A stretch of DNA of 32,000 nucleotides from Oscillospiraceae bacterium (GCA_020024475.1 JAHHTS010000022.1:1-32000); one strand, 5' to 3'; numbered from the stretch's first letter, positions 1-21,518 are shown. Program-made: numbers and translations. The notes: a model not told the origin generated them from the letters alone.

Positions 1-289
1 TTTATTTCGATTGGTTATTTAGTTATGAATAGACAATATCATTCAATACAATCTCATAAGTACAAAAACAAATGTTATTTATCAATACTATCTCTCTCAT
101 CACCCCCTATGCTTTTAAGTGCTCAGTTACACCTTGCCTTTCGCCATTTCCTTTATCAGATGCTCCGCCATATTCCACTCCAAAGTATAAATTTGAGTAA
201 TGTGTTAATATAACTTTCCGCTGTGCATAAGTTTACATAAAATACCTTTATGTGTTCCTTTAAATACAGTTTCATCATTTGGATATATA

Positions 290-899
290 CTAAAACAGTA
301 TCTATCTAAAAAAGTAATAAACTAAAAAGGAGCTGTTATTAAAAAAATTATCTAATCATCATAGTATAAAAATTTTATTAAAAGTATTGAAAATACACAG
401 TAGTACTAACTATTGATAATATTAGGCGAAAGGTTTACGTAAAATAAGTGTTAATCATGTATCAATATCAATTAAACAACTTAATATACATTCTATTGCA
501 ATAAAAAAGCATAAACACCACAAACAAAAACTTAACTCTACTATTTCTCATTAAAATCTTGCAGAACAAAAATTCACAGCCAATAAATCTAATCAAATAT
601 GGTTATCTTATATTATGTATATCTATACCATTAAAAATGGTTGGACTTATTTATCAAGCGTAGTAGATGTTTATACCAGAAAAATTATTGGTTTTTATGC
701 TAAGAAATAGATAAACATATTATTTTATTTGACATTAAAAACGCTTGCCTTAATCAAAGCTACCCTAGCGGTGTTATCTCACACAGTAATAGTAAATTTC
801 AATATAACTCCAATAATTATATATATTTTGCTATCAGTTTTAATACAAACTTTCTCTATACTAAAATTCGTATTTTCATGCTCAGATTATTGACTATAA
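290..899 (+). repeat. Left copy of a 610-bp direct repeat; partner at 20713..21322 (offset 20423)
   Basis: Read base by base against 20713..21322 with no mismatch or indel seen. Flanks diverge immediately outside both ends (289 a vs 20712 t; 900 g vs 21323 t). Confidence 0.93.
308..899 (+). pseudogene. IS3-family transposase orfB remnant, truncated at both ends, with stops and a frameshift
   Basis: A AAA AAG slippery heptamer at 308-314. Translation of 573-710 gives FTANKSNQIWLSYIMYIYTIKNGWTYLSSVVDVYTRKIIGFYAKK*, which fits the IS3 DDE core around the first catalytic Asp (W.sDITYI..YL..V.DLysRKIIGw). A shifted frame downstream reads GVISHSNSKFQYNSNNY, the HSDxGxQY box with D to N. There are in-frame TAA/TAG stops. 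No orfA, inverted repeats or orfB C-terminus are present. Confidence 0.75.
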
Positions 900-909
900 G
901 CTAGTCGTA

Positions 910-933
910 TTTTGTCTATAATTATAGACAAAA
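910..933. repeat. Perfect 24-bp palindrome ttttgtctataa/ttatagacaaaa, function unknown
   Basis: Self-complementary over all 24 nt. It lies 11 nt beyond the right edge of the left 610-bp repeat. No U-tract follows on either strand, so it is not a typical terminator. Confidence 0.85.
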
Positions 934-934
934 T

Positions 935-978
935 AAAATCAAAATATGTTACTCTTTTTTGTAACATATTTTGATTTT
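935..978 (-). terminator. Rho-independent terminator closing the minus-strand gene array
   Basis: 18-bp perfect stem (aaaatcaaaatatgttac / gtaacatattttgatttt) with an 8-nt loop. On the minus strand it is followed by UUUUAUUUU. It starts 10 nt after the stop of the 403-aa ORF. Confidence 0.7.
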
Positions 979-987
979 ATTTAGATT

Positions 988-2199
988 TTAGGATAGTAAA
1001 TAAATTTTTTTATCATCAAAATATATTTGCGAAGTATGGTTATAAATGCTAATCATAGTATCCATTTGTTGTAATATACCTGTTGCACCTGGATTACTTA
1101 GTGTTGCAAATTCTTTAACACATTTAGTCTCAATTTCTTTAGCATTACCTTTAATAGTTTTACCACCGTCCTGAAGAAACTCATCAACTTGACCTTCTTT
1201 AACAAACGGAATAGATCCTATAAAATCTCCTACACCTTTTGTAGCAATTCCAACTCCTTTAAGTAAATTAGTCTCCATTGAGGAATCACTTATTTTTTCG
1301 ATATATAACGAAGCTTTGCTAAAAATATCTCTATATATAGCGGACAAATTTGTTATCTCATTTTTTATCTCAGATATGTATTCTTCTTTAAAATTACCAC
1401 CTAGCATAATTTCCAACAACGAAGCTAAAGAGTATGTATAAAGAGATAATCTGTAATAATTGAATTTATCCTGCAATTTATTAAACTTTGACTTAACTTG
1501 CGTATGCACCGTAATAAAATGTTTTGAATCAATTAATTCAGAAACTTCTTTTTGATAAGCATTCATATTCTTGCGGGCAGTTCTTTGTATATCAAGAACC
1601 ATTTTATAATTACTTGTAATAAAATTCTCATTGTCCCAATTCAACTTATACTTGTTCACAATATTCATTAATGTTTCAACATCTGCTTCGATTTCTGCCT
1701 TTTTCTCTCTTTCTAAAAAAACTAAAATTTGCTTTTGCATTTCTTGAATTTGACCGAGCTGTTTTTCAATGCTGAATAAAGCAACCGCCATCATCATCGT
1801 TGCCGGATTTATGGGCATAACAGTAGTTGAAGTTGCTGTTAATGGATTAGCAGCTTGAAGTTGGGCGAATTTTGATTTCCCTGTAGCAGTCTTAAATGCA
1901 CCCCAAAAGTTTCCGTTTTGAGCCACTTTAAGTGTATCTCCTAACCCTGCATTTGCTAATCTAAATAATCCTTGTGTGTTAATTGTTGCTGTCTGTGTCA
2001 CTGTGTGTAAAGAAGGAATTAGTGATGAAACACCTGCTCCTAAAGTAGCTAATTGTGCAATTGGAACACTTATAGTATTACTGCTTTCTATATTTTTTCT
2101 TGCTGTAGATAGCATTTCTTCGCCAATTTGAATAATTTCATTTGATTCATTGGTCATATCTATGTGATTTATACTATCTACTTTAATTATTTTCCCCAT
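988..2199 (-). CDS. Hypothetical 403-aa protein with no recognisable domain; candidate effector downstream of the WYL regulator
   Basis: Uninterrupted ORF with AGGAGG 6 nt upstream of the ATG. The N-terminal third is Gly/Ala/Thr-rich with hydrophobic stretches (LATLGAGVSSLIPSL, PATMMMAVALFSI). The middle is helical or coiled-coil-like, and the C-terminus is Gly-rich (KGVGIATKGVGDFIGSIP). I could not find nuclease, ATPase or protease motifs. Confidence 0.8.
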   Translation of the reverse strand: MGKIIKVDSINHIDMTNESNEIIQIGEEMLSTARKNIESSNTISVPIAQLATLGAGVSSLIPSLHTVTQTATINTQGLFRLANAGLGDTLKVAQNGNFWGAFKTATGKSKFAQLQAANPLTATSTTVMPINPATMMMAVALFSIEKQLGQIQEMQKQILVFLEREKKAEIEADVETLMNIVNKYKLNWDNENFITSNYKMVLDIQRTARKNMNAYQKEVSELIDSKHFITVHTQVKSKFNKLQDKFNYYRLSLYTYSLASLLEIMLGGNFKEEYISEIKNEITNLSAIYRDIFSKASLYIEKISDSSMETNLLKGVGIATKGVGDFIGSIPFVKEGQVDEFLQDGGKTIKGNAKEIETKCVKEFATLSNPGATGILQQMDTMISIYNHTSQIYFDDKKIYLLS

Positions 2200-2267
2200 A
2201 AAAAACCTCCTATTTTTATAATATTAAATTAATTTTTATTGTAGGATTTGTTTGGTTTACGAATCCG

Positions 2268-3242
2268 TTATTCCATTTTATTGTAAGTATCTCGAACCAT
2301 ATCTTTATATTCTTCTTTTACATTTTCCGGACCAAGTATTTGTATTTTTCCTGAGAAACCAAATACCCAACCATAAAATGTTGGACTTGATGCAACATTT
2401 GTAATCACTCTAAATGAGTTCATATCATAAGCAAGGGTAGTTACATCCTCACCAAACTTGTCAATAATAGTTTTCATCAAACTGTTGTCGCAACGAAGAT
2501 CAACCTCAACAACATCACCTTCAAACATTTTAAACACTGTTTTTGTGAATTCATTAAGATCAAATTCTTCTGGTTGTGAATAACTTTCTCTTTCAAGAAT
2601 AGTAGGTATTGTTGCTATACGATCAACTCGAAAAGCAATAACTTTTTCTCGTTTTTCCGAGTACCCTAATACATAATAGTAATCACCATTCCAAGTAAGA
2701 TGGTAGGGACTTATAGTATAAACCTCACCATTATTCTTCAGCACTTTTTTCTTCAATCCAGTGAAATCATAGTACTGGAATGAAATTTGTTTATTTTCGT
2801 TAATAGCATCATTAATTGCATCAACGATGTAATATACCTGTTCATTATCAGGCTTGATATTTTTAACAACATAGTTGTTTCTTTTTAATTTCTTGATCTG
2901 ATAAATACTTGCTAAATCATTTATTTTATCTATTAGTATTTTGCTTTTATTTGAAGTAATGAACTTTGAAGATTCTACTGCATCGATGAGTAACTTTAAT
3001 TCAGGTAATTCAAACTTTCTATCACCCATAAAATATTTATTCTGTGATGATCTTGTTTCTACAATATCATAGCCAATATCTTGTAAAGCTTCAATGTCTC
3101 TCTTAAAAGTGACTCTATGCACAGTTAACCCATATTCACTTTCAAGCATATTAGATAATTCTGATGTAGTAAGCTGATGTTCCTCATCGGTATATTTTTC
3201 TAATAGTTTCAGTAAGCATATAATTCTTGGCTTTGTATCCAT
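2268..3242 (-). CDS. WYL-domain transcriptional regulator (HTH-WYL-WCX architecture, BrxR/CapW-like)
   Basis: N-terminal wHTH (RIICLLKLLEKYTDEEHQLTTSELSNML). Central WYL-type core (ISPYHLTWNGDYYYVLGYSEKREKVIAFRVDRI). C-terminal extension of about 100 aa. RBS AAGGA lies upstream of the ATG. Confidence 0.85.
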   Translation of the reverse strand: MDTKPRIICLLKLLEKYTDEEHQLTTSELSNMLESEYGLTVHRVTFKRDIEALQDIGYDIVETRSSQNKYFMGDRKFELPELKLLIDAVESSKFITSNKSKILIDKINDLASIYQIKKLKRNNYVVKNIKPDNEQVYYIVDAINDAINENKQISFQYYDFTGLKKKVLKNNGEVYTISPYHLTWNGDYYYVLGYSEKREKVIAFRVDRIATIPTILERESYSQPEEFDLNEFTKTVFKMFEGDVVEVDLRCDNSLMKTIIDKFGEDVTTLAYDMNSFRVITNVASSPTFYGWVFGFSGKIQILGPENVKEEYKDMVRDTYNKME

Positions 3243-3292
3243 AATATTTTCCTTTCAAAACAGGACTTACTGTTATAAAGTATAAAAACCAA

Positions 3293-5047
3293 TTATTTAA
3301 AAAGATTTTGCGCTTTAACAAATTTTATAAAATGAGAATAGATTTGCTCTGTCCTATTCAAGATATTTTCTTCGGTATAATCTTGATACTTACTTGCTAA
3401 TTTAACCAATTCTTCATCCTGTGTTCCATTTTTGTAAACACCTTTATCATTTTCAAAACCATTATAGTATTTTGCTTTATCCGTAAAGCGATAATCAGAA
3501 GCTCTGACGTTTATCTTTTCTTCCAATAATGCTTTGTTTCCAAGTTTTTCTAAACTGTTTTTATCTGATAAAGATTTTTCATTTTCCTGACGTTTTTTAG
3601 GATAAATATGTTCTATTTCTAATTTTGTATTAATATTAATTAGTTCTTGATTTGGTTCTTGATACATCCACCAAGCTAACATTGATTTTGTAATAGGACG
3701 CCCGTTAGTAAAAATATAATTTCTAATGCCATTATCTACTTCATTTTCATTTAACAAATAATCATTAAAAGAAATTTCTGCACCATTAACAATATTAATC
3801 ATTTCTGGATAAATAGGTGTTCTTAATGCATTAACACCTGGTCTAATAAATGAATATGCCCATATAAAGGCGATTGTTTTATTTAAGAACACATATAGCT
3901 TTTCTTCATCCAATTCGTTTTCATTATTTCTATTAGACATAAAATATACTGATAAGAAATATGACCACATTCCATTTGGAGCATAATTAAGCACAAATAG
4001 TTGTTTAAGAACTCTATCCGAAAATACATTGGATTGAGTTTCTACAGAATGCCAAAATGAAGCTAATACTTCTAAATCATTCAAAGCTTGATCATTCTTT
4101 AATAAAGCATATCCATTCTTCTCAAAGAATTTACGTAAAGCTTCTGTTGTGGTATTCCTATTGCCTTGTTTAGCTCTTAGATAATACATATATTTTGTAA
4201 ATAATTCGTCCATAGGTGAGCCGGATTTAGAACTAAAAATTTGCTGAGAAACAAGTTCCAGTTCTTTCCATCTAGAAATAAATTCATCTTTTTCACCTTT
4301 CAACGAATAATATTTATAAAGTTGTGCTTTAAAAATATCTGTATCAGAAAGAGGTTTTCCTCTATCATTTAATGTTGAGAATATTCTTAAAGCTGTATCT
4401 TGTGATTCTGCTTCAATAGGCAATAATATACAATTCTTTAGAACTCTATTTGGTAAAAAAGCAAAGTATGATGGGTATTCGTTTAAGAATTCTTGAATAC
4501 GTATTTCAAAGAACCTAAACGTATCAGCATACTTACTTTTCATTGTTTTTGTTGCTTCACCATTCTTTAAAATTGAAATGAACTCTTCTTTATCCTCATC
4601 TGTTGAAACTTCAGAATCAATTTTTAAATGATTCTTATCAGGATTATCAAATTCATCAACTTTCCAAATACAAGCAGCAATGCTTTCTTTTGTTTTCTTG
4701 GTGTTATCATCTTTCATATTGAATAATTTTGAATAGAACGCTCTAAGTAAAAGCATAAGTGTTGTTAAACGTTGCTGTCCATCAATTATTTCTTGTTTGT
4801 TGTTACTATTCTTAAATGTAACAATCGGTCCTAAAAAATATTCATCGTTGTCTGAATCAAAATTATCTGCGTTACCTTCGGGAAAAGCAAATGAGAAAAT
4901 ATCATCCCATAATGTTTGACATTCAGCTTCTCCCCAAGCGTAAGGTCTTTGATAATCAGGAATTAAAAAATCAGACTTTTTATCCGAGAATAATTCTTTA
5001 ATTGTTTTTTGATCTATGTTTAATTTTGACATTTTTCTCCTCATCAC
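3293..5047 (-). CDS. DUF262/DUF1524 GmrSD-family enzyme (type IV restriction-like, BrxU-like)
   Basis: DUF262 motifs IPDYQRPYAW and IIDGQQRLTT. C-terminal His-Me finger-like LEIEHIYPKK (DUF1524). The ORF-track start is GTG at 5047. An ATG at 5032 preceded by GAGGAG is a plausible true start. Confidence 0.85.
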   Translation of the reverse strand: MMRRKMSKLNIDQKTIKELFSDKKSDFLIPDYQRPYAWGEAECQTLWDDIFSFAFPEGNADNFDSDNDEYFLGPIVTFKNSNNKQEIIDGQQRLTTLMLLLRAFYSKLFNMKDDNTKKTKESIAACIWKVDEFDNPDKNHLKIDSEVSTDEDKEEFISILKNGEATKTMKSKYADTFRFFEIRIQEFLNEYPSYFAFLPNRVLKNCILLPIEAESQDTALRIFSTLNDRGKPLSDTDIFKAQLYKYYSLKGEKDEFISRWKELELVSQQIFSSKSGSPMDELFTKYMYYLRAKQGNRNTTTEALRKFFEKNGYALLKNDQALNDLEVLASFWHSVETQSNVFSDRVLKQLFVLNYAPNGMWSYFLSVYFMSNRNNENELDEEKLYVFLNKTIAFIWAYSFIRPGVNALRTPIYPEMINIVNGAEISFNDYLLNENEVDNGIRNYIFTNGRPITKSMLAWWMYQEPNQELININTKLEIEHIYPKKRQENEKSLSDKNSLEKLGNKALLEEKINVRASDYRFTDKAKYYNGFENDKGVYKNGTQDEELVKLASKYQDYTEENILNRTEQIYSHFIKFVKAQNLFK

Positions 5048-5086
5048 TTATCCGATAAAAATTAAATGAATTTATCATTAGGATAT

Positions 5087-7159
5087 CTACTCAACTCCTA
5101 ATGCTTTATATACAGCATCCTCTGCACTTACGTACGGTATTAACTGAAATGCTGACATTAATTCAGGTGGAACTGTAACTAAATCAGCCATAGAAATTGC
5201 TGGAATAAGTACCTTTTTAGCACCACTATCCAAACATACTTGAAGAACATTTGCTAATTCTTCAACTTTAATCATAGTTCCTGCAATAGTTATATCACCT
5301 AATACTGCTAAACTACTTATAGTAGGTTTCCCTAAAGCAATAGATGAAATTGCAATTAATGTAGGAAGCGCCAATGTATCTGTCATTCCTATTCCTTGAA
5401 GATCTTGGTAATTAACAATATAGTCTTTTGTAGTTGTACTAATACCTCCACTGATACGTGATGAATTAGCTTTTAAATAATTAAGTGCTGTGTTTGTAGC
5501 CTCTTTTGCTTTAGTGTTAGTACCAAGTCCAGAACGCTCAAATTTACCAGTACCAGGCATAATTTGAGATTCTAAACGATAAGCTCCAAGCATTCCCGAT
5601 TTACCTCTAGATACTGTGTAAATTTGTCCTGGATTACATATTCCTTCTGGAATAAGTTTTCCTCCACCTTGTTCAGGAACTGAAACATAATGTTCATCAA
5701 AAGTTTCATTATCAATGTAAGAGAAATTTACGTCATAAAATTCCATTCCACCAAGCTTTTTAAGTTGTTCTTTTACTCTACGACGCATTTCTAATGCAAT
5801 CTGAAGAATTTCTTCTAATTGCTCTTTAGTATATTCACCATCTGGATAAATTAACTTAATAAATCCACCAACTATTTTTCTAACTGCAATGGTATCTCTT
5901 TGGTTAAGGTTTTTTCCTAAATGAAAATATTTATCTAATGCATCCCCACATTGTTCCTTGCGTAATTCACGAATAAATTCTGCTAAATAATCTGTAATAA
6001 AACCATAAGCATTTGTAAAATGTTCTGGTCTAAATTTAGGAATTTCCCATCCCGGTATGTAACAGTGCATGCGATCTAAGAATGCAGTGTCTGTACCCAT
6101 TTCGGGTGGAAATGGATCAAACAAACTTGACGTCTTTAACAAAACATCCACACTTTGATTTATATTACCAACAAAAACCATAGATGCAGAAGCTGCTTTT
6201 TCTTCTTTTCCACGTGCAAAAGATCCAGATGCCATATAGTCTTTCATAATTTGAATACCATCTTTATCTTTAAAATTGATTCCAGCAACTTCATCAAAAG
6301 CAACACAATCCCAAAGTCCAACTAAACCAACAGTTTTTCTTCCCATATTATAGAAAAGGTTGGCAACTGTTGTTTGTCCTCCTGATACAAGGATACTATT
6401 CGGAGAGATTTCTTTATAAATATGAGATTTACCAGTGCTTCGTGGTCCTAATTCGCAAAGGTTAAAATTGTTTTCTACAAGAGGAAGCATACGTGCAAGA
6501 AGTAACCATTTTTCACGATATTCTAACTTGTCAGGTTCCATTCCAATAGAGCGAAGCATAACATTCATCCATTCTTCTTGGGTAAACATTTTTCTACCTT
6601 GTTTCAACTCATCAATATCAACGTGTGGCATTTGAATCGGTGTCAACTTGCGAATATGAATAGGAGAGGAATTTTTATCTTCCTCAATAAACTCATATTC
6701 TAATTGACAAATACACCAAATACCACCACATAATAAACGATCAAATTTACTTGGGTATTGTTCTGATATAGGAATATTTTTTATTCCTAAGTTTGAAAAT
6801 TCAGCCTCATATGTATCTTTCTTTATATTTAGATTTACCGTGATCTTATCAATAACTGTATAACTTCCTTTTTGACGAAGTACCGATAATATTTTTTGTG
6901 CTTCATCCGGACGCACATAGTTATCTGCTAAAATCTTTTTTACTGTAGCAACTCCTTCTTCAATGATAGAAGGATCATCTGAACTACAATATTGTCCTAA
7001 CAAGAATTCAAGAACGTATACAGGGACGTTTGCTCCTTCTTTAATTGACTTTGTTAAGTCCTTACGAACGATTTTTCCATCAAAGTTTGTTCTCAACTTC
7101 CTATTTATTTCTTCATTTTGATCAATATACAAACTTGAATCTATCATAAATTCATCCAA
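5087..7159 (-). CDS. brxL: BREX Lon-like protease BrxL
   Basis: 690 aa with P-loop GPRSTGKSH and a C-terminal Lon-protease-like domain. It sits directly after pglZ, as in type 1 BREX. It ends in TAG. Confidence 0.92.
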   Translation of the reverse strand: MDEFMIDSSLYIDQNEEINRKLRTNFDGKIVRKDLTKSIKEGANVPVYVLEFLLGQYCSSDDPSIIEEGVATVKKILADNYVRPDEAQKILSVLRQKGSYTVIDKITVNLNIKKDTYEAEFSNLGIKNIPISEQYPSKFDRLLCGGIWCICQLEYEFIEEDKNSSPIHIRKLTPIQMPHVDIDELKQGRKMFTQEEWMNVMLRSIGMEPDKLEYREKWLLLARMLPLVENNFNLCELGPRSTGKSHIYKEISPNSILVSGGQTTVANLFYNMGRKTVGLVGLWDCVAFDEVAGINFKDKDGIQIMKDYMASGSFARGKEEKAASASMVFVGNINQSVDVLLKTSSLFDPFPPEMGTDTAFLDRMHCYIPGWEIPKFRPEHFTNAYGFITDYLAEFIRELRKEQCGDALDKYFHLGKNLNQRDTIAVRKIVGGFIKLIYPDGEYTKEQLEEILQIALEMRRRVKEQLKKLGGMEFYDVNFSYIDNETFDEHYVSVPEQGGGKLIPEGICNPGQIYTVSRGKSGMLGAYRLESQIMPGTGKFERSGLGTNTKAKEATNTALNYLKANSSRISGGISTTTKDYIVNYQDLQGIGMTDTLALPTLIAISSIALGKPTISSLAVLGDITIAGTMIKVEELANVLQVCLDSGAKKVLIPAISMADLVTVPPELMSAFQLIPYVSAEDAVYKALGVE

Positions 7160-7177
7160 AACAAAAACCTCCTAAAA

Positions 7178-9697
7178 TTATCCGAAGAAACCAAAGTCAT
7201 CTGCAAAAGCAATATCCATAACAATTTCGTGCCTAAAAATTTCAATATCATTTTTATCGTCGAATGCTACTAAATAATACTTTTGTGATTTATCATATTT
7301 CTTATTTTTTAAGCTAAAGCGAAGTCTGAACATTCTTTTAGCTGTGTCAGTATCTTTTTTATCTGCAACAATAATGTTCTCATTTGAAATCTTTTCATTA
7401 TCATCAGAAATAAAGTAAACTCTGTAATTCGTTTCTTTTACAACATCACTTACTGGCTCAGTTTGTACAAAATCTAATGTAGTAATTAAGTTAGTTATTT
7501 TATTTGTTAGACTTACTAATGCAATTTGTGCAGAAGTTGTTTCTTTCTTACCACGTTCTACTTTAACTTCTAAAAGAGGAACAAGTAATTCTTGAGGTGA
7601 GCAACCACCGTGAACAAAGTTTTGTCCAGCACCACCAACTTTAAATATATCTGAAGCAATAGGGTACGAAACATATCTGTCATCCTTATTTCCTAAGACA
7701 CGTCCAAGTGAAATAGAATTAACTCCATCTTCATTAATTGCATCCGGACTAATAACATATCTTTGACCTGTACTAGCTGATTTAGCTTTAAAAGATATTT
7801 TATCGTTAGCTTCTATCTTATCTCTTTTGTAGATAAATCCGTGATCAGCTGTAACAAAGAAATGGTGTGTATTAGCTAAAGAAGATACTCTACGCATAAA
7901 TGTATGGATTTCTTCTATCGCTTCTTCGCAAGCTGTAAATACTTCGTTTTCAGTATTTGATGCATCACCTCTAGCATCAACTTGATTATGATAAACATAA
8001 ACTACATCTTGTCCAGTAAATATTTCTCGTAATTCATCACGTTTCATATTTTTCATTGTGTCAAATTGAATGCAATTACTATTCACCTTGTAATTCTTTA
8101 AGATTCTAGAACGCTGTTCAGTTGTAGCACAAGGCTTTGCATCAATCAACACTTCATACTCATCTGTATATGAAAGTTCTTTATGAGGAAGTAAAGAAGC
8201 CATACCTAATGGGGTATACGATGGAAGTACACCTTGCATAGCATTAAGTGATGATATACATTTTTCATCGGCTTGTAATTTTTCATATAATGTATGAGCA
8301 ACTTCATATCTTAACGCATCCGAAATAATAACAACTGTTCTTTCTTTAGCATTATTTATATGATTAGCAAAGAAGTTTTTCTGATAACGCAATCCAGTAT
8401 CTCCACCTGCACTGGTGAATTCTGTGTTCCAGTTAACTGTAATTTTGTTCAAATAGTCATTAGTATAAATGTTTTCAACTAGTTCTCTAACTTTTTCAAA
8501 AGCCGTTGTATCTTCGATAGAATCTAAATGATAATAGAAATATCTGTATCTTCTATCAATCTTAAATCCTTCATTTAAGTAGAATTTAAGCACATTGTTT
8601 ATACCACTGATAGGGTGATACTTACCACTTGATATAATTGCAAATGCATTTTCAATTACAAAGTATTCATTTTTAAATCTCTTGCCATAATGCTTTTTAC
8701 GTTGTTGTAAACACAATTCATCAATAGACTTATTATTTAACTTAGCACCAATATCTTCTTGCTCTAAGCGTTCTATCATCCATTTAATGAGTAGCTTATC
8801 AATTCCTGAGAATATGTTGCAATCGACTATATCATTGATTTCCATTTTTGCAAAATACTTATCACCGTTGATAGCATTAAATACTTTATCAGCAATCTCA
8901 TCATATCTCTCGCCGTAAATATAACTATTCATAAGATTGTCTATGAAAGCAATAATATTTCCAGACTTATAAGACACAAACGGTTTCCAAGCTTGTGGTA
9001 CATCTGTACGAATTGCTTTCGCAATATATGTTACAAACATAGTAATAACAAGTTTTTCTAAAGTTGGTTTTGCGTCATTGTATCCAAAGTTATTGTCTGC
9101 TTGTTGCCAAAAGGCCTCAAGCAGATCATATTTTTCAAACTCCTGAAGATATTTATTATCTACAAAATCATCGTCAGTTATAATTACACGAAGTACCTCT
9201 TCAAAAGAGCAAGTTTTACTCTTGCATAAAACACTCATCAAAGCTACTTCTATACTACTTCTTGTGAAATTATCAATTTCTAAATCATAGAATTTTTGTA
9301 TTCTATCTTTGTTTGCGAAGAATTTAATGTAATGTTGAATTACTGGTTTATATCTCTCATCTATTCCCAAGTCAACAGTTAATAGAGAAGCTCTATCTGC
9401 AAAAAATTCTTTTGAATACTGAATTGTGTCAAATAGATGATTTTCTCTAATGTTTGGTTTTGGAAACGGAGCATAAATCAAATAATTTGTTGTTTTATCT
9501 TCGCATTCTAAAAAATATTTTATATAAAATTGATTGTCCGGTTCTAAATATAGTACTTTTGCATTTTCAAGTTCAATCGTATTTATATCTTCTTGAAACT
9601 CTGCATTGGCATCGTACCAGAACACTAATTTTCTCACATCACCGACAAACTCAGCATTGAGCTTGTCGGTAATCTGTTTTAAGTTAAGTTCTGCCAT
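7178..9697 (-). CDS. pglZ: BREX alkaline-phosphatase-superfamily protein PglZ
   Basis: 839 aa with PglZ-domain motifs VVIISDALRYEV and FFVTADHGF. AGGAGA RBS. Position and size are canonical. Confidence 0.93.
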   Translation of the reverse strand: MAELNLKQITDKLNAEFVGDVRKLVFWYDANAEFQEDINTIELENAKVLYLEPDNQFYIKYFLECEDKTTNYLIYAPFPKPNIRENHLFDTIQYSKEFFADRASLLTVDLGIDERYKPVIQHYIKFFANKDRIQKFYDLEIDNFTRSSIEVALMSVLCKSKTCSFEEVLRVIITDDDFVDNKYLQEFEKYDLLEAFWQQADNNFGYNDAKPTLEKLVITMFVTYIAKAIRTDVPQAWKPFVSYKSGNIIAFIDNLMNSYIYGERYDEIADKVFNAINGDKYFAKMEINDIVDCNIFSGIDKLLIKWMIERLEQEDIGAKLNNKSIDELCLQQRKKHYGKRFKNEYFVIENAFAIISSGKYHPISGINNVLKFYLNEGFKIDRRYRYFYYHLDSIEDTTAFEKVRELVENIYTNDYLNKITVNWNTEFTSAGGDTGLRYQKNFFANHINNAKERTVVIISDALRYEVAHTLYEKLQADEKCISSLNAMQGVLPSYTPLGMASLLPHKELSYTDEYEVLIDAKPCATTEQRSRILKNYKVNSNCIQFDTMKNMKRDELREIFTGQDVVYVYHNQVDARGDASNTENEVFTACEEAIEEIHTFMRRVSSLANTHHFFVTADHGFIYKRDKIEANDKISFKAKSASTGQRYVISPDAINEDGVNSISLGRVLGNKDDRYVSYPIASDIFKVGGAGQNFVHGGCSPQELLVPLLEVKVERGKKETTSAQIALVSLTNKITNLITTLDFVQTEPVSDVVKETNYRVYFISDDNEKISNENIIVADKKDTDTAKRMFRLRFSLKNKKYDKSQKYYLVAFDDKNDIEIFRHEIVMDIAFADDFGFFG

Positions 9698-9710
9698 AAA
9701 ATTTCTCCTG

Positions 9711-10016
9711 TTAAAAAGGAAGCCAGTCCCTTAATTCTTTCAACCCTTTATAAGTTTTCATCAATGTTGAATTATTATTCAGGTATTCCATTCCTTTTAC
9801 TGTTAATTTCGTACCATCTAAAAAGCAGTTTATAAAATGACTGCTATTTCCACTCTCTATAAATTGTGCGCCTTTAATAAGCCCTTCGTCTTGGCAAGCT
9901 TCAATTATATCGAAATACTCCCATTTTTCTATATTATAGTCTTCGGCTGTAGGTATATTGCCATCATTTAGTTCTCGCATAAAGCTGAGCATAACTTTTA
10001 GCTTGTTTACTGCCAT
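9711..10016 (-). CDS. YjcQ-like small winged-helix protein inserted between pglX and pglZ
   Basis: 101 aa. The pattern KLKV..SFMRELNDGNIPTAEDY...EACQDEGLIKG...LTVKGMEYLNNNS.MKTYKGLKELRDWLP matches my recollection of the YjcQ family. GAGGTGA RBS. Gaps to both neighbours are tight (10 and 13 nt). Confidence 0.7.
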   Translation of the reverse strand: MAVNKLKVMLSFMRELNDGNIPTAEDYNIEKWEYFDIIEACQDEGLIKGAQFIESGNSSHFINCFLDGTKLTVKGMEYLNNNSTLMKTYKGLKELRDWLPF

Positions 10017-10026
10017 TTATCTCACC

Positions 10027-13572: not shown

Positions 13573-13584
13573 TGATCCTCCTGA

Positions 13585-16500
13585 TTAGAACTCAATGTTG
13601 AGTACAGTGTCGTCTTCAAGCGATGCCATCAGTTTCTTTTCCAACTCAGCTACATAGTGTTTTACATCATCCTGAGTTTCAATCTGCCAAGTGGTAGAAT
13701 TGTTGATGGTCTTAATGCTAACTGTTTTTGTCTTCTTAACCGGAGCAACAGGTACCGGTTCACTGCCAGAGTTATCATCCTCGTGGTCAGGCTCTACCGG
13801 AGCCGGTGTCAGCTTTGCTTCTTCAGTAGCAATTTCATTCAGGCAACGCACCTTAAGTGCATCTACCTCAACAGTAATCGTCTGGAGTGTTGCTACATTA
13901 TTGCAATGAGAAGTCTTGTCACGGATTTCTCTAAAAGCTTCTACATATTTATCAACCAGCTTATCGTGGCATTTCTTGCCATCAAGCTCGTCAAAGACAC
14001 GCTTTCTTGCCACATCAATCGCTGCATCAACAGGCTTCTGCATCTCAGAGAGCAATCCGCCATAGGATTTGATAAAGTTTTCTAACAAGTCAGGCAGCTT
14101 AAAGATTTCACCGTAAGGATCAGCCTTTTTAAGGATGCTCTTAATGCTGGCTACAATGGACTCAATATCTTTATTTACAATGAAAGTCTTACTGTCATCG
14201 TAAATACCCATCAAACGCAGAGCTTTATCAAAGATGCCTTTCTGTTCGCCCTCAAAGAATTTCTTTACAGGCTCATAGTCTTCTGCAAAGTCGAGATATT
14301 CATCCTTGCTTTTATCAATACCAGCAAAGAACTCGGCAGAATACTTCATCTGGAGAACATCCGTCATCAGCTTCTTGCCTGTACCGATAAATCTCTTTCC
14401 GGGATAGGCAGGCTGATTCTTATAGTGAATTTCCAGCTTTTCAAGTTCAACCTTAAGTCTATCAGCATAACCGAGGAAGCTCTTCATAATGGCATCGTCA
14501 TCATCACTGGACGGAGTAATGCCAAATAGTTCCTTCATTACTTCACGGACTGCTTTCTTCTGGCGTTCATTTGCTTTGACTTTCTTGTCCGTCATCAGTT
14601 TGTCCTGGTACTCTTTTCGGGTGAGAAAGCGAATGATTTCTTCCTCAGATTTAGAAATAAGAGTAACAGCTTCGTTATGAACGAACAGTGCAATCTCGCC
14701 ATCCTTAAAGAGTTTTGCAACAAGCCACTGAACATCAGCTTCAACAAAACCGTAAGGTGCTTTAATAAAACGCTCTATCAATGATTTCATAGATGTCTTC
14801 ATATGTCTTTGTGTGTTAAGTGAAATGTAGTCATTGACATCCTTTAATGCAAGTTCGTTTTTCTTAGTACTTGTGCTAGATAATGCTAATTGTTGAGTAG
14901 GATCTTTAAACATTGAACGAATGTCGCTTTCACTCATAGCAGTATCAATATAAGAGAGTTTATGATAAACGTTAGCCACCAATTTGCCAAGTGCATCATT
15001 TATTTTTGTATGTATATCCTTAGATGTTGACTGGATTTTATCTCCATTAACATAAATTTCTGCATTTTTTAAACTTTCTTCTAAGAATAATCTTGCAGTT
15101 GCGTTTCTTTCACGCATTTCGACTTTCTTAGCTTCTTTAATTTGTTCGAACTTAGTTACTGCGTTTGTAGCATCGTAACGAATAAATTTTTCTATCTGTA
15201 AAGCAGATCTTATTTCATCTAAAAAAGTTCTGTCTTCTGGCATAACAATCAATACACAGTTATACTGATCTGAAACAATTCTCATTGTTATGTCATCAGA
15301 TCTTTCGTCACTATTAGGTGTTAGAATCTTTAATGTAATATCATTATTTTGATTAGCTTTATATGGCTTTTCATCAACAACTTGGTTAAACGCAAATGCG
15401 TATCTACCGTTAAAAGAAGGGTAACGATATTTCTTTTCATCATATAATCCATCGAAAATCATTTCCGAAACTTTGGCAATAACTTCTCCAGAATCAACAT
15501 TCTGTGATTCGATAGCTCTATTTATCTCTTGTTCTTCATCTGTAAGAAAAACATAAATTTCACCATTCTTTTGTACAAGTGTTTGACGAACTAATCGTTT
15601 TAAGGAATCCTCAACCTTTTGTGTTAAACTCATACGGTCATCATTTATATTTGTAACCATAAGACTAGTAATGTTTTCTACATTAGCTTTTATTTCTTTT
15701 ACATATTTAATCATAAATAATGCTTTAAGGACATTAACATCAAAACATTCTTTATCGTGATTAGGGTTGAGGTAATCATTATCTAACGCACGAGAAATTA
15801 CTCCTTTATGAGAATGATCCAAAAATTGTTCAAGTGCATCATAGAACATATTAAACGGAACAATTTCTCCGGGCTCTTTATCCATAACTTTAACTGCTGA
15901 CTCTTTAAAAAGAGCAAGCATTGAACGTTCACCTTCAGCAAGGTGCTTGCCTGATGCACCGTGTGTACGAATAGATGTAAGTACACTTGCTAAAAGATTA
16001 AATTGATATGGTATAAAAGGATAAATATCCGAAAAGTTTTCTTTTCCTGAATATAATTTTTTTTCAATACCATCATTAAATAAAATCAAATTTTTAATTA
16101 TAGTTGACTTATCATCATAAAGTAAAGAAAGTGTTTGTTTAGCACTATCACTTTTTTCAAGAATTCTCTTTTTAATAACTTCATCAACGTTTGCAGAAGA
16201 AAGAGAGAGTCTAGTGTCAAAACGTCCTTGAATTTTAGAAAAGTCGTTTCCTTTTGTTTTAGTAATAGAATCAATGTCTTGTTGGCTCGTTACGATAACC
16301 CAGGCTTTACCCTGACAAGCTGTTCCTAAATCTTCAGTCACAGTTTGAAGATTTAACATTAATTTAGAATCATCACCAATATACTGACCAATTTCATCAA
16401 TCAAAAATACAACGTGATGATTATTTCCTTTACTAGTAATATACTTTTTAACTAGCTGTGCAAAGTCTTCTACTTTATATTTGTATTCACCAGTTGCTTT

Positions 16501-17187
16501 TTCACACCAGTTTCTTCCTGCTTCTTCGCTCATAAAGTCAATATCAGCAAGAACTTCTACTACATCGTCTTGAATGAAGTCAAAATCACTGCGAGATTCT
16601 TCCCATTCAGAGCCAAAACTTTCTTCAAATCTCTCTTTGAATAAATCAAATTTTCCTTCTTCACTTAGTTTTCTCTCTAAATCTGCAAGGAATGGATTAG
16701 AGCCACTAAAACCTAACATTTCATTAAATACATTTTGCAAAACAGAAACAATAGCAACTTTAGATTGCTTTCCATTGACTTCACTTTTTGAATCAATGTT
16801 AAAAAGAACAACATCAGCAGGCACAGATGTAGCTAATTTCATATCTGCTAAGACCATTGGATCTGCAATCTTATTGTCTTCGATAAAATAATCAATAGCT
16901 TTTTTGCCATTAACATCTTTATTTTCTAAAAGGTAAGATAAAATTTTTAAGAAGTGAGATTTACCACTTCCAAAGAAACCGGAAATCCAAACACCCATTT
17001 TGTCAGTATTTCCGTTAATTCCTTTTTTATAGCTTTCAAAAAAATCAGCAAAATGCTTCTGTAATTCTCTTGTAACAACGTATTCTTCTAATTCCTGTTG
17101 GACACTTGCACTATCATCTTGACCCACCTTAATTACGCCTTTAATATCTCTATCAATAGGCTTATTAAACATGTTTTTAATGATCAT
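13585..17187 (-). CDS. brxC: BREX P-loop ATPase BrxC/PglY
   Basis: 1200 aa with Walker A GFFGSGKSHFLK and Walker B VVFLIDEIGQY. Size and position are canonical. Confidence 0.94.
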   Translation of the reverse strand: MIIKNMFNKPIDRDIKGVIKVGQDDSASVQQELEEYVVTRELQKHFADFFESYKKGINGNTDKMGVWISGFFGSGKSHFLKILSYLLENKDVNGKKAIDYFIEDNKIADPMVLADMKLATSVPADVVLFNIDSKSEVNGKQSKVAIVSVLQNVFNEMLGFSGSNPFLADLERKLSEEGKFDLFKERFEESFGSEWEESRSDFDFIQDDVVEVLADIDFMSEEAGRNWCEKATGEYKYKVEDFAQLVKKYITSKGNNHHVVFLIDEIGQYIGDDSKLMLNLQTVTEDLGTACQGKAWVIVTSQQDIDSITKTKGNDFSKIQGRFDTRLSLSSANVDEVIKKRILEKSDSAKQTLSLLYDDKSTIIKNLILFNDGIEKKLYSGKENFSDIYPFIPYQFNLLASVLTSIRTHGASGKHLAEGERSMLALFKESAVKVMDKEPGEIVPFNMFYDALEQFLDHSHKGVISRALDNDYLNPNHDKECFDVNVLKALFMIKYVKEIKANVENITSLMVTNINDDRMSLTQKVEDSLKRLVRQTLVQKNGEIYVFLTDEEQEINRAIESQNVDSGEVIAKVSEMIFDGLYDEKKYRYPSFNGRYAFAFNQVVDEKPYKANQNNDITLKILTPNSDERSDDITMRIVSDQYNCVLIVMPEDRTFLDEIRSALQIEKFIRYDATNAVTKFEQIKEAKKVEMRERNATARLFLEESLKNAEIYVNGDKIQSTSKDIHTKINDALGKLVANVYHKLSYIDTAMSESDIRSMFKDPTQQLALSSTSTKKNELALKDVNDYISLNTQRHMKTSMKSLIERFIKAPYGFVEADVQWLVAKLFKDGEIALFVHNEAVTLISKSEEEIIRFLTRKEYQDKLMTDKKVKANERQKKAVREVMKELFGITPSSDDDDAIMKSFLGYADRLKVELEKLEIHYKNQPAYPGKRFIGTGKKLMTDVLQMKYSAEFFAGIDKSKDEYLDFAEDYEPVKKFFEGEQKGIFDKALRLMGIYDDSKTFIVNKDIESIVASIKSILKKADPYGEIFKLPDLLENFIKSYGGLLSEMQKPVDAAIDVARKRVFDELDGKKCHDKLVDKYVEAFREIRDKTSHCNNVATLQTITVEVDALKVRCLNEIATEEAKLTPAPVEPDHEDDNSGSEPVPVAPVKKTKTVSIKTINNSTTWQIETQDDVKHYVAELEKKLMASLEDDTVLNIEF

Positions 17188-17201
17188 ATTATTTTTCTCC
17201 T

Positions 17202-17777
17202 TTAATCAACTAATTTAAATGCTCGGTAATAGTTGTCATCTTTAATTTCACTGAATAATACTAATTCTTGTCCATCGTATACACCTGGATAAAAAAGCAC
17301 TACAGGAACATTATCGATTACCTGATGTAAATTATTTAAAACCGTATGTGACCTAAGAATTGGATAACATTTTCCTATTCCAGTAATAAAAACGATTGCT
17401 TTTTCTGGAGTATTTTCTTGAATGTGCTTTATTATTAAACCATCTGCCGATGTAATTTTAAGCATATTGCTTATAGATTTAGAAACACGTTCAAAACCTT
17501 TCTTCTTTTCAAAGTCGTAACACTTTTCAAGGAACCCTTTTTTCTTTAGAATATCAATCGTAATATAATATAAATCAAATTCTACGATTTTATAATCATC
17601 CATTGATGAATTATTTTTCTTTTTCATATAATCAATTCGTTCTCTAACATACAGTTCTTTTTCGGCTGGATAATCAAAAATATAATATCCCACTTCATTT
17701 CCTAATCCTTTATTTTCTCTAAAGCTTGGCTTTTTGATAATTTCTTCAGCCTTATCAAGTCGTTGATCAAGTGTCAT
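17202..17777 (-). CDS. brxB: BREX protein BrxB (DUF1788)
   Basis: 191 aa with the N-terminal pattern GLGNEVGYYIFDYPAEKELYVRE typical of DUF1788. Lies between brxA and brxC. Confidence 0.88.
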   Translation of the reverse strand: MTLDQRLDKAEEIIKKPSFRENKGLGNEVGYYIFDYPAEKELYVRERIDYMKKKNNSSMDDYKIVEFDLYYITIDILKKKGFLEKCYDFEKKKGFERVSKSISNMLKITSADGLIIKHIQENTPEKAIVFITGIGKCYPILRSHTVLNNLHQVIDNVPVVLFYPGVYDGQELVLFSEIKDDNYYRAFKLVD

Positions 17778-17780
17778 CTC

Positions 17781-18383
17781 TTAATTCACCCCCGTAATTG
17801 CTTTTACAATCGCACTTTCGCCTACAGCTTCAAGATAGCGTTCTAACGCTATATCCATAATAGGCGGTGTTATTGTTTTTTCTTTCCCATTAATACTTAA
17901 CAAATTTGCATCTACCATAAAATTGAAATATGCAGAACGTAATCTTTTTCTAGTAGCATCTGTTAACTTAGCTACATCATCTGTTTGTATTTCCTTGTTA
18001 TTGAAAAAAATATTTGCATCTTTGTCTTCTATGGCAGGTATTCCTAAGATTTTTTTTTCTCTGTACACTTCAAAAATAAATTCAAAAAATAACCTATCTC
18101 CACGTAATATCGCAATTAAATTTATCAGTTTTTGTGTTTGCAAGTCTGATGTCAAAAATAATTGTAATAAACTATCATCTAGTTTTTTGACTCTTTTCCA
18201 TATGTATCCATACATTCTTCTTGCACGATATTCTTTTGCAGCCCCAAATAGATTTTCATCTATACATAACTTTTTAATTTCTTCGTCTGTTTTTCCATCA
18301 CTTATTAGTTTTATAACTTTTTTAAACTCCACAAACCAAAACGATTGTGAAACCAATCCTGCACTATATTTATCATCTATCAT
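17781..18383 (-). CDS. brxA: BREX protein BrxA (DUF1819)
   Basis: 200 aa, first BREX gene. YSAGLV...FWFVEFKKV...DEEIKKLCIDENLFG is typical of the BrxA helical fold family. The stop lies 3 nt before the brxB start. Confidence 0.85.
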   Translation of the reverse strand: MIDDKYSAGLVSQSFWFVEFKKVIKLISDGKTDEEIKKLCIDENLFGAAKEYRARRMYGYIWKRVKKLDDSLLQLFLTSDLQTQKLINLIAILRGDRLFFEFIFEVYREKKILGIPAIEDKDANIFFNNKEIQTDDVAKLTDATRKRLRSAYFNFMVDANLLSINGKEKTITPPIMDIALERYLEAVGESAIVKAITGVN

Positions 18384-18395
18384 TCTATATCACCT

Positions 18396-18602
18396 TTAAT
18401 CATCTAAAATAACTTCACATATATCACCAATATCGCAATGAAACACCTTGCACATTTTCATAAGTACTTCTAATGAAACTGGTTCATCCTTATTAAGTTT
18501 AGTCATTGTATTAGAACTTATCTCGGCAGCTCTTAACAAATCAGCTCTTTTCATTTTGTTATCTATCATCAATTTTTGAAGCTTGTTGTAACTTATTTTC
18601 AT
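18396..18602 (-). CDS. Small XRE/Cro-type HTH regulator heading the BREX operon
   Basis: HTH core KRADLLRAAEISSNTMTKLNKDEPVSLEVLMKMCKVF. The ORF track begins at a TTG at 18629. The ATG at 18602 has AAAGGA 7 nt upstream and gives a 68-aa protein. The stop lies 12 nt before brxA. Confidence 0.8.
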   Translation of the reverse strand: MKISYNKLQKLMIDNKMKRADLLRAAEISSNTMTKLNKDEPVSLEVLMKMCKVFHCDIGDICEVILDD

Positions 18603-18689
18603 AAACATTTCCTTTCTAATAATTGACAAATAGTTATTATATGTGACTATTTAACAATAAATAACATTAAATAAACTTATTCACTTTAT

Positions 18690-18718
18690 ATTATAGTGTT
18701 TATTTCTGATCCCTTCAA
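18690..18718 (-). promoter_or_regulatory. Candidate sigma-70-type promoter for the XRE-BREX array
   Basis: On the minus strand: TTGAAG (18718-18713), a 17-nt spacer, then TATAAT (18695-18690), about 88 nt upstream of the XRE ATG. A second TATAAT at 18641-18636 has a poor -35. Confidence 0.4.
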
Positions 18719-19908
18719 TAATTATGATGGTATTTAGCATTTTAAACAAATATGTTGTCTATTTTTCGAACATATTAGTTATATGTTTCTTAGTATTGAT
18801 TAAATATACAAATGCCTACTCATACTAGTAACCACTCGTATAATATGCGGTGAATCACACTATCAAGTGCAACAGTTTTAAAAAAATTCATATAAATTTA
18901 TAGTAGAATAAAGTCATCACAGCACACCACTAAAAAATGAAATCTATATGAACTATATTCGCATCTTACCGTATAAGAACGCAGTTGTATACGAAAATAT
19001 TGTGTGAATGGATTAGTTGATCGAAAAATTGCTGACTCATTGTGCTCAGCTACAGTACTGTTTATCATGAAATAAGAAGAAATTGCATACATATGTATGT
19101 CATTACAACATATTACACATATACAACACAAAAGAAGTATATGCTACGTTGATCTTGCCGTCATCGCGGAATGTTTCATTCACAGCAAGTAATCAAATAT
19201 CTTGAAGAAAAATGAAAGATACTTGATATCCAGAACAGAATTCTAATACACTATGTGAGTTATGTTCAAGTCAACTAATCATTTTCAACTGATTATTGTG
19301 AAAATGTTTATTAAACGGTAATTTAAAAGTCTTCGGTCTCAAGGAAAAGAATCTCAGCAACAAGGAAGCACGTGGTAAATTTAGTAAAGGCAAGTCTATA
19401 ATAAATTTTGATAAATCTGTTTAGATCAGACTGGAATCCTAGCACCAGCAAGCTGAAACAGTAGTTAGCTAGAAGAGTAAAATCAAAGTAGGTTTTGCCA
19501 CATTGTCAAAATGTAATACAAGATTTTACATAGCAGTTAAAATGTCTGACCGCAATGCTGAAACAACGTAAAATACTATAGTTAAAACTCTTTATGCTTT
19601 TTTCTCATTAACTGCTTAACACCATTACATCTGACGTATATACATAATTAGTAAACTGACATAATAATGAACAACAATTTAACTGTTATATTTATTTTGA
19701 CATTTCTTATTGTGCTTGGAAAATGAACAAATAAAAACTCAAACGTATTACTCATAAAGTTTTATTCTAAATGTATAAATCTTTCAAAAGTCAGTACTAT
19801 AACATTAAAAATAACCTGGCATTAATTAACACTAGTCCTTGTAAAGTTTTAAATTTTCTGTCTGTCCAAGAATTATGAAATTCTAAGCTTGCTAATTGTT
19901 GCTCTTAG

Positions 19909-20046
19909 TTTGACAATTCACTGCTTCAAAAAGAATTATTGGAAGAATTACAGCCATATGCCCGCCAAAATAATATTTCTGCAAATGAACTGGTTGCTCA
20001 ATGTTTCAAATATACAATGCAAAAGAAAGTTACAAAAGACAAATAG
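19909..20046 (+). pseudogene. Ribbon-helix-helix (CopG/antitoxin-like) gene remnant lacking a start
   Basis: 45 codons: FDNSLLQKELLEELQPYARQNNISANELVAQCFKYTMQKKVTKDK*. This has the RHH helix A/helix B pattern. A TAG lies immediately upstream and there is no start codon. A terminator-like hairpin follows. Confidence 0.3.
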
Positions 20047-20057
20047 ATAAAAAACAA

Positions 20058-20100
20058 CTGCATTAAAAGATTATACTCTTTTTAATGCGGTTTTAATTTA
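20058..20100 (+). terminator. Rho-independent-type hairpin after the RHH remnant
   Basis: Stem gcattaaaaga / tctttttaatgc (20060-20088) followed by ggttttaattt. Confidence 0.4.
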
Positions 20101-20330
20101 CATTTCTTCTGTCAATACTATATATTATAAATCACCATTTCCTCTTTTAAGAGATCTATGTGATTCTTTTGATTTTAATTAAAACTGTAATTTGATAAGA
20201 TTACACATACCGTTAAGCTTTCAATAGTAATATTAACCTTGTTCTTTCCTCTTGAGTTTCAATTTCTACAATGCCTCATTTGTTATCTGGAACTACAACA
20301 ATTATTGTTTCATAATATATTTCTATTTTA

Positions 20331-20594
20331 TTAATATCCCAAAAATATTATTTTAAAATTGTTTTTAATATCATCCTTTGTTGCAACTTCCAATAGATTC
20401 TGGAAATAAGTATTCACTTTAACCGTATAATCTACAAGCACATCTTTTCACATTAATATTTCAGCCAATACTTTTAAATCGTCGTGTAATATTCTTTCTA
20501 TAATTTCATCTATTTTTTTGATATTCCCATCAATTTCAGTCACATCTGTTTGTATAGTCTGCTCTGTTTCCGATTCTTCGTTTGAAAATAACAT
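20331..20594 (-). pseudogene. Unidentified 87-codon reading frame interrupted by an in-frame TGA
   Basis: ATG at 20594 opens a 48-codon frame ending ..HDDLKVLAEILM, then TGA (20450-20448). The same frame continues KDVLVDYTVKVNTYFQNLLEVATKDDIKNNFKIIFLGY to TAA at 20333-20331. No family recognised. Confidence 0.3.
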
Positions 20595-20712
20595 TACTTA
20601 ACTTGAGCCAAATACCAGAGATTAAAGTTTAAAATTGAAAAACTTTAACTGTTGCTGAAATTTAAAAAATCTCCAACAAAAACTTGCTCTTTTGGAGAAA
20701 TAAAATAACATT

Positions 20713-21322
20713 CTAAAACAGTATCTATCTAAAAAAGTAATAAACTAAAAAGGAGCTGTTATTAAAAAAATTATCTAATCATCATAGTATAAAAATTTTA
20801 TTAAAAGTATTGAAAATACACAGTAGTACTAACTATTGATAATATTAGGCGAAAGGTTTACGTAAAATAAGTGTTAATCATGTATCAATATCAATTAAAC
20901 AACTTAATATACATTCTATTGCAATAAAAAAGCATAAACACCACAAACAAAAACTTAACTCTACTATTTCTCATTAAAATCTTGCAGAACAAAAATTCAC
21001 AGCCAATAAATCTAATCAAATATGGTTATCTTATATTATGTATATCTATACCATTAAAAATGGTTGGACTTATTTATCAAGCGTAGTAGATGTTTATACC
21101 AGAAAAATTATTGGTTTTTATGCTAAGAAATAGATAAACATATTATTTTATTTGACATTAAAAACGCTTGCCTTAATCAAAGCTACCCTAGCGGTGTTAT
21201 CTCACACAGTAATAGTAAATTTCAATATAACTCCAATAATTATATATATTTTGCTATCAGTTTTAATACAAACTTTCTCTATACTAAAATTCGTATTTTC
21301 ATGCTCAGATTATTGACTATAA
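20713..21322 (+). repeat. Right copy of the 610-bp direct repeat
   Basis: Identical by eye to 290..899 over the full length. Confidence 0.93.
20731..21322 (+). pseudogene. IS3-family transposase orfB remnant (second, identical copy)
   Basis: Same sequence, the same internal stops, frameshift and truncation points as 308..899. Confidence 0.75.
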
Positions 21323-21518
21323 TCTAAATAACATATATGTACACTGAGTTTTAATATTGATTATATAATTGTATTTTTTTACTTTTCATAGTTTTATATT
21401 GTTCTATTTCTCAAATAATAAAGAATTGCTAATGTATATAAATTGATATAATTATAAACAAATATTGCCAAAATGTTTGACTACAACAAAGTTAAATCTA
21501 CTTGGTGAGTTTTCTTCG

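Follow-up and report, generated by a model that had tools for sequence, protein, structure and literature searches.

How can a whole defence island be present in one strain and missing from a closely related one when it holds no gene with which to move itself? The question is raised by a 32,000-nucleotide stretch of the genome of an Oscillospiraceae bacterium (GCA_020024475.1, JAHHTS010000022.1:1-32000; hereafter the window), in which a bacteriophage exclusion (BREX) island of 11 open reading frames (ORFs), every one on the minus strand, lies between two direct copies of a dead insertion sequence (IS) of the IS3 family. The best-supported reading, which we consider probable, is the gain or loss of a 20,423-bp unit, made up of the island and one copy, by RecA-type homologous recombination between the two copies.

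The direct repeats are the starting point. When the window was compared base by base with itself, shifted by 20,423, positions 290-899 and 20713-21322 proved identical in direct orientation at 610 of 610 bases, just as a reading of this DNA from its sequence alone (the sequence-only reading) had claimed. The same reading had placed 19,813 bp (900-20712) between the copies, consisting of the 11-gene BREX array and 2.1 kb of decayed DNA, and this was also what we found. Identity over 610 bp by chance is impossible. The homology of the copies is slightly wider than the exact block (285-902 versus 20708-21325), and the copies differ at three positions in all (286, 289 and 900), each no more than 5 nt from the edge of the homology. 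It should be noted that a short-read graph assembler prints a repeat that is traversed twice identically by construction; the 100% identity of the copies is therefore not fully independent evidence if graph assembly was used for the window. At its left edge, the left copy reads TATATA, where both the right copy and the empty-site contig described below read TACATT. These two changes within 4 bp (286 and 289) may represent either a genuine private mutation or a mistake made in polishing or assembling a low-complexity run.

The counterpart of the filled site was recovered from public assemblies. When the first gene of the right flank was looked up by its exact protein, three Logan contigs were returned, all from one study. 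One of them (L001; SRR14298097, 3,709 bp) aligns to window 167-903 and 20708-24299 and reads as window 167-289, one repeat and 21323-24299, unbroken at both borders. It thus has the make-up of an empty allele, namely left flank, exactly one repeat copy and right flank, and the single-copy site that had been predicted for a related genome exists in a closely related strain. From another sample, SRR14298098, contigs matching the window at 100% cover 13013-20737 (L004), 870-2165 (L088) and 21293-24043 (L002). Each of the three ends exactly 30 nt (k-1, with k=31) inside shared sequence, as is characteristic of a repeat node that two paths enter and two paths leave. These contigs independently reproduce three of the four repeat junctions (from the right end of the island into the repeat, from the repeat into the left end of the island, and from the repeat into the right flank), and the fourth is implied. 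The exact BrxA and PglZ proteins are on record in SRR14298098 only, which, together with the empty contig in SRR14298097, shows that sister samples contain filled and empty alleles. No exact match to a 29-mer from the repeat was found in genome_contigs (GTDB representatives), in JGI metagenome contigs or in IMG/VR.

The nature of the repeat was clear from several lines of comparison. Listeria IS3 OrfB matched both copies alike by tblastn (E=2e-15, 36% over 118 aa, with in-frame stops), and the blastn matches of the repeat were annotated IS3 transposase genes. The nearest protein relative of the stitched translation of the repeat (P0121) was 55% identical and contained HTH_21 and rve; a second relative was P0122. 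Every reading frame of the repeat contains stops (10-21 per frame). The dead IS3 orfB fragment recognised by the sequence-only reading was thereby corroborated. The Pfam rve match in the repeat was below the cut-off (E=3e-4) because orfB is decayed; aligned with the DNA of its relatives (L089, L090), the repeat shows two internal deletions, and its HTH_21/rve orfB carries two frameshifts. Among the hallmarks of the IS3 family, the rve/OrfB homology and the A6G frameshift motif are present, while two terminal inverted repeats (TG...CA) and a target duplication of 3-5 bp are not. The IS3 element here is a non-autonomous remnant and not a functional member of the family.

The borders of the remnant differ between its two sides. 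On the left, the repeat begins in the region of the orfA end and the A6G-type -1 frameshift motif (TAAAAAAG, at ~309-316), which aligns with the A7G of the relative L089. The right copy reaches 107 bp further into orfA. One high-scoring segment pair (L089 76-310 versus window 20610-20842) spans the left border of this copy, and the similarity of 20606-20712 to the 3' end of orfA gave a local score of 53 versus 11.7 ± 2 for the shuffle null; Listeria OrfA had no match by tblastn. The earlier statement that orfA is missing is thus not quite accurate: the right copy keeps ~107 bp of the orfA 3' end (20606-20712) that the left copy lacks, and the repeat itself starts at the orfA end. On the right, the unrelated contigs L089 and L090 lose similarity at ...TTATTGACTATGGT(T)CA, and we take this to be the IS right terminus because the likeness of the two contigs stops there. 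At the corresponding position, the window reads ...TTATTGACTATAA[T/G]CT in both copies (887-902 and 21310-21325). This terminus is degenerate (...GACTATAA[T/G]CT versus ...GACTATGGT(T)CA in the relatives), with ~26 of 34 bases matching, and the DNA past it differs per copy, being the island terminator next to the left copy and the right flank next to the right copy.

A right terminal inverted-repeat region is therefore kept in the repeat, where the sequence-only reading had seen no inverted repeats. Its 'identical truncation points' are half correct at most: the left border is a truncation of the left copy only, and the right border is the native IS end rather than a shared truncation. By comparison with the IS relatives, the IS left end is in neither copy. 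Of the two remnants, the right one is longer and the left one is cut off at 284/285, and the repeat is all that both still share; an identical segment that equals the whole shared stretch is as expected for recombination or conversion. The possibility that the left flank (1-284) is itself IS-derived, with two old diverged copies and a converted core, was rejected (shuffle p 0.45-0.72 against the IS relatives and 20424-20707).

RecA-type homologous recombination could use the two copies as a 610-bp substrate. A single crossover between them would remove the 20,423-bp unit (the island with one copy) and leave the left flank, one copy and the right flank. In the reverse crossover, a circle or incoming DNA with one copy would recombine with the resident copy, and the unit would be inserted. 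The unit cannot move itself, because it has neither an integrase nor an intact transposase, and the left end of the IS is missing. In searches of Pfam, PADLOC and NCBIfam, no island ORF matched an integrase, recombinase, transposase, replication or transfer family, and the only mobile-element sequence that turned up was IS3 and IS30 debris. Homologous recombination across the repeat, as already proposed from the sequence, is the natural explanation of the polymorphism and is supported by the single-copy site in the related strain. We infer recombination between the copies as the cause of the polymorphism, along with its RecA dependence; the event may have been either a gain or a loss of the unit. 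The reversible on/off switch that had been proposed as well is not supported in that form, the states seen being presence and absence only.

Several observations weigh against recombination between the copies as a full account. The evidence consists of assembled contigs from three samples of one study (SRR14298096-98), not of reads, and the SRR14298098 graph fits an integrated unit and a circle plus empty site equally. The repeat of the empty-site contig differs from both window copies at four positions (317 A/G, 330 G/T, 341 A7/A6 and 689 T/C), and it carries the right-copy alleles at 286 and 289, where a deletion would leave the left-copy alleles. Divergence between this contig and the window is higher in the repeat (6/618) than in the flanks (2/3092; Fisher p = 4e-4), and the same contrast gave a binomial p of 0.036 when the pseudogene rate was allowed to be threefold faster. 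This excess means that extra events are needed, either conversion or import of a segment from another strain. A recent deletion from a window-type chromosome misfits, because its product would equal the window copy with left-copy alleles at 286 and 289. The simple Campbell integration suggested by the sequence-only reading does not fare better for an L001-type site, because a single crossover would be expected to give two reciprocal chimeras, and the two copies in the window share all four 'foreign' alleles, which set them apart from L001. L001 is thus a haplotype related to that of the window, but neither configuration gave rise to the other directly. Furthermore, the end of L004 at 20737 requires an L001-type entry (T|ACATTC) in SRR14298098, not the TATATAC of the window. 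In that sample, either an empty-site-like strain may coexist, or the true left junction may be without the two private single-nucleotide polymorphisms (SNPs) of the window.

How the pair of copies arose is a question of its own. The sequence-only reading held that they cannot come from two transposition events. However, because both right-hand junctions lie at the IS end, they fit two ancient transposase-made junctions with later homogenisation. Such a history would be that of an old pseudo-compound transposon: either a still live IS3 element inserted twice, so that direct copies came to flank the island, or a BREX plasmid that carried the IS fused with a chromosomal copy in an Hfr-like manner (Hfr, high frequency of recombination), after which the copies died and gene conversion kept them uniform. 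The copies would then be old, with no recent duplication of the dead fragment; this bears on origin only, and the pair would still drive loss by recombination. Both right junctions lie exactly at the native IS terminus beside different DNA, an arrangement that transposase makes and random duplication rarely does, and the identity extends over precisely the homology that the copies share. The differences at 286, 289 and 900 are within 5 nt of the edges, beyond the reach of conversion tracts, and the other IS debris (IS30) in the island region could be the remains of a plasmid backbone. However, the 20-kb island must then have survived between direct repeats of at least 0.6 kb while at least 10 stops, two frameshifts and two deletions accrued. 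Such long survival would need sustained selection for BREX, and gene conversion is a postulate of this account. Though we think this history less likely than not, it competes in earnest with a recent duplication of the dead fragment. Mobilisation in trans, in which the unit would be moved or rearranged by a live IS3-family transposase encoded elsewhere in the genome and acting on the intact right end that the dead copies keep, is extremely improbable. Both copies keep a recognisable right terminal region (~26 of 34 bases), but IS3-family transposition requires both IS ends, the left end is in neither copy and no target-site duplication can be defined. In addition, tblastn found no live relative in the window, and the 29-mer from the repeat was unmatched in the collections searched.

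The configuration of the window could also be questioned at the level of the assembly, with an empty-site chromosome and a separate island element carrying one repeat joined into one path by printing the repeat node twice. The one node with two entries and two exits in SRR14298098 is the same graph for both topologies, copy identity would be automatic, and the L001-type entry needed at the end of L004 means that an empty-site-like strain may coexist with the island in that sample. Nevertheless, we find this very unlikely: a 20.4-kb circle of defence genes and IS debris, with no gene for replication, partition or transfer, could not maintain itself as a replicon, the private SNPs at 286 and 289 speak for a left copy sequenced from separate molecules, and the ends of the island join only the repeat. 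Another alternative makes the repeats bystanders, the whole segment having been imported by a double crossover in conserved flanks at a defence hotspot. It would explain why the repeat is significantly more diverged than the flanks between L001 and the window, with SNPs clustered at 286-341 as for an imported tract, and it is in keeping with a right flank that is itself foreign-looking defence DNA (GC 0.36-0.41 versus 0.23-0.27, with a type IV-like helicase). We nevertheless judge it quite unlikely, since the empty and filled alleles differ by exactly the island plus one copy with both breakpoints inside the repeat; moreover, flank-mediated replacement moves alleles between strains and merely pushes the repeat-by-repeat event to another lineage.

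Gain or loss by homologous recombination between the copies can be compared with known systems. The F plasmid integrates into the chromosome through chromosomal IS2, IS3 or gamma-delta in the Campbell manner, forming Hfr strains. As in the Hfr-type product, the insert here is flanked by direct IS copies, its outer junctions are native IS ends, and the event would be reversible through the same homology. Unlike in the Hfr case, there is no recognisable plasmid backbone (only IS30 and unassigned debris), the IS copies are dead, and the SNPs misfit a single crossover into the observed empty allele. A compound transposon has two complete IS with functional outer ends and a working transposase; the copies here have stops, deletions and no left ends. 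The locus does not qualify as an integrase-type island, an integrative and conjugative element or a prophage either. Such elements have a tyrosine or serine recombinase and short direct repeats at their attachment sites, in many cases at a tRNA gene, whereas the searches returned no recombinase family and no tRNA here, and the repeats are 610 bp of IS sequence. Neither tRNA nor Rfam families were found anywhere in the window, and a model of attachment (att) at a tRNA was dropped on that account.

Insertion and deletion driven by IS homology are textbook events, and the mechanism is for this reason not new but ordinary gain and loss of an island by homologous recombination. A further reason is that RecA-dependent integration with an inactivated IS26 has been shown experimentally (PMC4894685). 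An IS26 translocatable unit consists of cargo plus one IS copy, and its integration by a resident copy produces direct repeats with no target duplication (PMC4894685, PMC4196232). A circular unit with a frameshifted IS26 integrates beside a frameshifted IS26 only in recA+ cells, at a frequency ~100-fold below that of the transposase route (PMC4894685). The unit in the window resembles this RecA-dependent route in being cargo plus one IS copy, with direct repeats and no target duplication. However, the IS belongs to the IS3 and not the IS6/IS26 family and is dead, with its left end absent, so that it has no transposase-catalysed targeted route. Without an active Tnp26 of the IS6/IS26 family it is not an IS26-type translocatable unit, and only the RecA-dependent side route can apply. 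The Yersinia pestis pgm locus, which is bounded by IS100, is commonly lost in culture (PMC4658026). Like pgm, the island is a large accessory region between direct IS copies, loss of the unit would leave one copy, and states with and without it coexist. Unlike pgm, it is bounded by 0.6-kb dead fragments and not by complete active IS, and its cargo is a BREX island.

The genes of the island, together with the repeats and their surroundings, are listed in Table 1. The genes brxA, brxB, brxC, pglX, pglZ and brxL occur in one minus-strand array with full-length PADLOC hits, and the predicted content amounts to a full type 1 BREX gene set, to which BrxU-like and BrxR-like accessories are added. The YjcQ-family ORF (9711-10016) is a non-canonical extra gene within the BREX core. 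Plasmid pEFER carries a type 1 BREX island with BrxR (WYL) and BrxU (GmrSD) accessories. The island in the window likewise combines brxA-brxB-brxC-pglX-pglZ-brxL with genes for a WYL regulator and for a type IV nuclease of the GmrSD family; unlike pEFER-type BREX, it has the WYL and GmrSD genes downstream of brxL, an HTH_26 gene heading the operon, and extra YjcQ-like and 403-aa genes. The closest GTDB-representative relative of PglX, from a Lachnospiraceae metagenome-assembled genome, was 62% identical, and because this was the best PglX match there is no close relative of the island for a comparison of flanks. The whole island had only ~77% matches to plasmids (near mode), and these were to Ligilactobacillus BREX genes. 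Within SRR14298098, contigs L004 and L005 share exactly 30 nt inside pglX (13013-13042), and L005 stops at the 3' end of brxL (~5099). Such branching of the graph may reflect variant alleles of pglX or of the accessory module in this sample.

Table 1 Predicted features of the window, in order of position.
Feature	Position	Strand	Remarks
Left flank	1..284		No clear gene; not IS-derived; 167-284 identical (100%) to empty-site contig L001
Left copy of dead IS3-family remnant	285..902 (exact 290-899)	+	Left-truncated at 284/285; right side is the native IS terminus
Bidirectional terminator hairpin, 20-bp stem	933..980		Separates left repeat from last island gene
403-aa conserved protein without assigned family, last island gene	988..2199	-	Logan contig L088 covers 870-2165 at 100%
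WYL/WCX-domain regulator (BrxR-like)	2268..3242	-	Pfam/PADLOC
GmrSD-family type IV restriction nuclease (BrxU-like)	3293..5047	-	Pfam/PADLOC
BrxL (Lon-like)	5087..7159	-	PADLOC E=0
PglZ	7178..9697	-	PADLOC E=0
YjcQ-like 101-aa ORF	9711..10016	-	Between pglX and pglZ
PglX methyltransferase	10027..13572	-	PADLOC E=0
BrxC	13585..17187	-	PADLOC E=0
BrxB	17202..17777	-	PADLOC E 3e-73
BrxA	17781..18383	-	PADLOC E 1e-71
HTH_26 (Cro/C1-type) regulator	18396..18629	-	Heads BREX operon
Decayed IS30-family transposase remnant	18950..20040 (approximate limits)	+	NF033563 E=4.9e-6
Decayed ORF, origin unassigned	20130..20594	-	48-aa piece still called as gene
IS3 orfA 3' remnant	20606..20712	+	Contiguous with right repeat; absent from left copy and empty site
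Right copy of dead IS3-family remnant	20708..21325 (exact 20713-21322)	+	Native IS right terminus adjoins right flank
Right flank	21617..24226	+	106-aa ORF and broken 759-codon nuclease-helicase frame (type IV restriction-like)

The 403-aa protein had no Pfam, PADLOC or NCBIfam match. It has 2,233 homologues at 60-75% identity, for example in Anaerostipes and Varibaculum, and those at 73-75% stand alone in unrelated neighbourhoods (arginase/amidohydrolase; NERD and polysaccharide genes), which suggests that the gene is a mobile single-gene module. Conservation of the junction between the IS3 remnant and this gene in the 73-75% homologues was considered and rejected, the homology ending at the stop codon and the contexts being unrelated. 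Exact-protein look-ups of the 403-aa, WYL and GmrSD proteins gave no match, and the 403-aa gene was recovered solely as a truncated call (P0001) on L088.

No long ORF is present in the decayed 2.1-kb stretch between the BREX operon and the right repeat (18630-20712). The NCBIfam NF033563 match spans ~19311-19599, with a weak HTH_38 match upstream near 18955, and the right end of this stretch is the further IS3 sequence (20606-20712). Family searches found no recombinase family in its six-frame translation. Compared with plasmids, the stretch matched a few Subdoligranulum fragments, and compared with phages it had no match. Positions 19802-19923 resemble sequence that several Subdoligranulum variabile assembly records have at their ends, which is what one would expect of a repeat element.

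The right flank directly follows the repeat in the empty-site contig. Its 113-aa ORF and 615-aa helicase ORF together form one 759-codon frame (window 21947-24226), with a PD-(D/E)xK-like N-terminus and a superfamily 2 (SF2) helicase, which matches the PADLOC model of type IV methyl-directed restriction endonucleases (1.4e-50). A TAG at 22286-22288 breaks this frame in the window, in L001 and in L002. In contig L003 (SRR14298096; frame at contig positions 407-2653), the TAG site reads GAG, but there is a separate nonsense change, GGA to TGA, at 23510. These two different nonsense alleles indicate that the restriction-like gene beside the BREX site was knocked out twice independently. The empty-site strain (L001) shares the nonsense allele of the window in this gene. 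GC content is 0.36-0.41 in pglX/brxC (within 9500-15000) and in the nuclease-helicase gene of the right flank (within 21500-24000), versus 0.23-0.27 in the repeat and flanks. The island thus looks foreign, and so does the DNA next to the empty site, which places the IS remnant inside a defence hotspot. The flank GC of 0.23-0.27, like the relatives of the genes, would suit a low-GC, Bacillota-like organism of the gut or rumen.

A more far-reaching picture would make the 20.4-kb unit a transposase-independent translocatable unit that RecA excises again and again, that is exchanged among strains living together and that re-enters at surviving dead IS fragments, with a mixed natural population, in the gut or the environment, in which BREX is reversibly on or off. 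We think this unlikely; if it were true, the nonsense allele common to filled and empty strains would imply an earlier presence of the island in the empty strain. Gain or loss of the unit by homologous recombination between the copies provides a natural example in which a single recombination step, with no mobility gene involved, can remove and perhaps restore a whole BREX system along with its type IV nuclease and its regulators. IS debris can thus go on shaping the turnover of defence islands long after the death of the IS.

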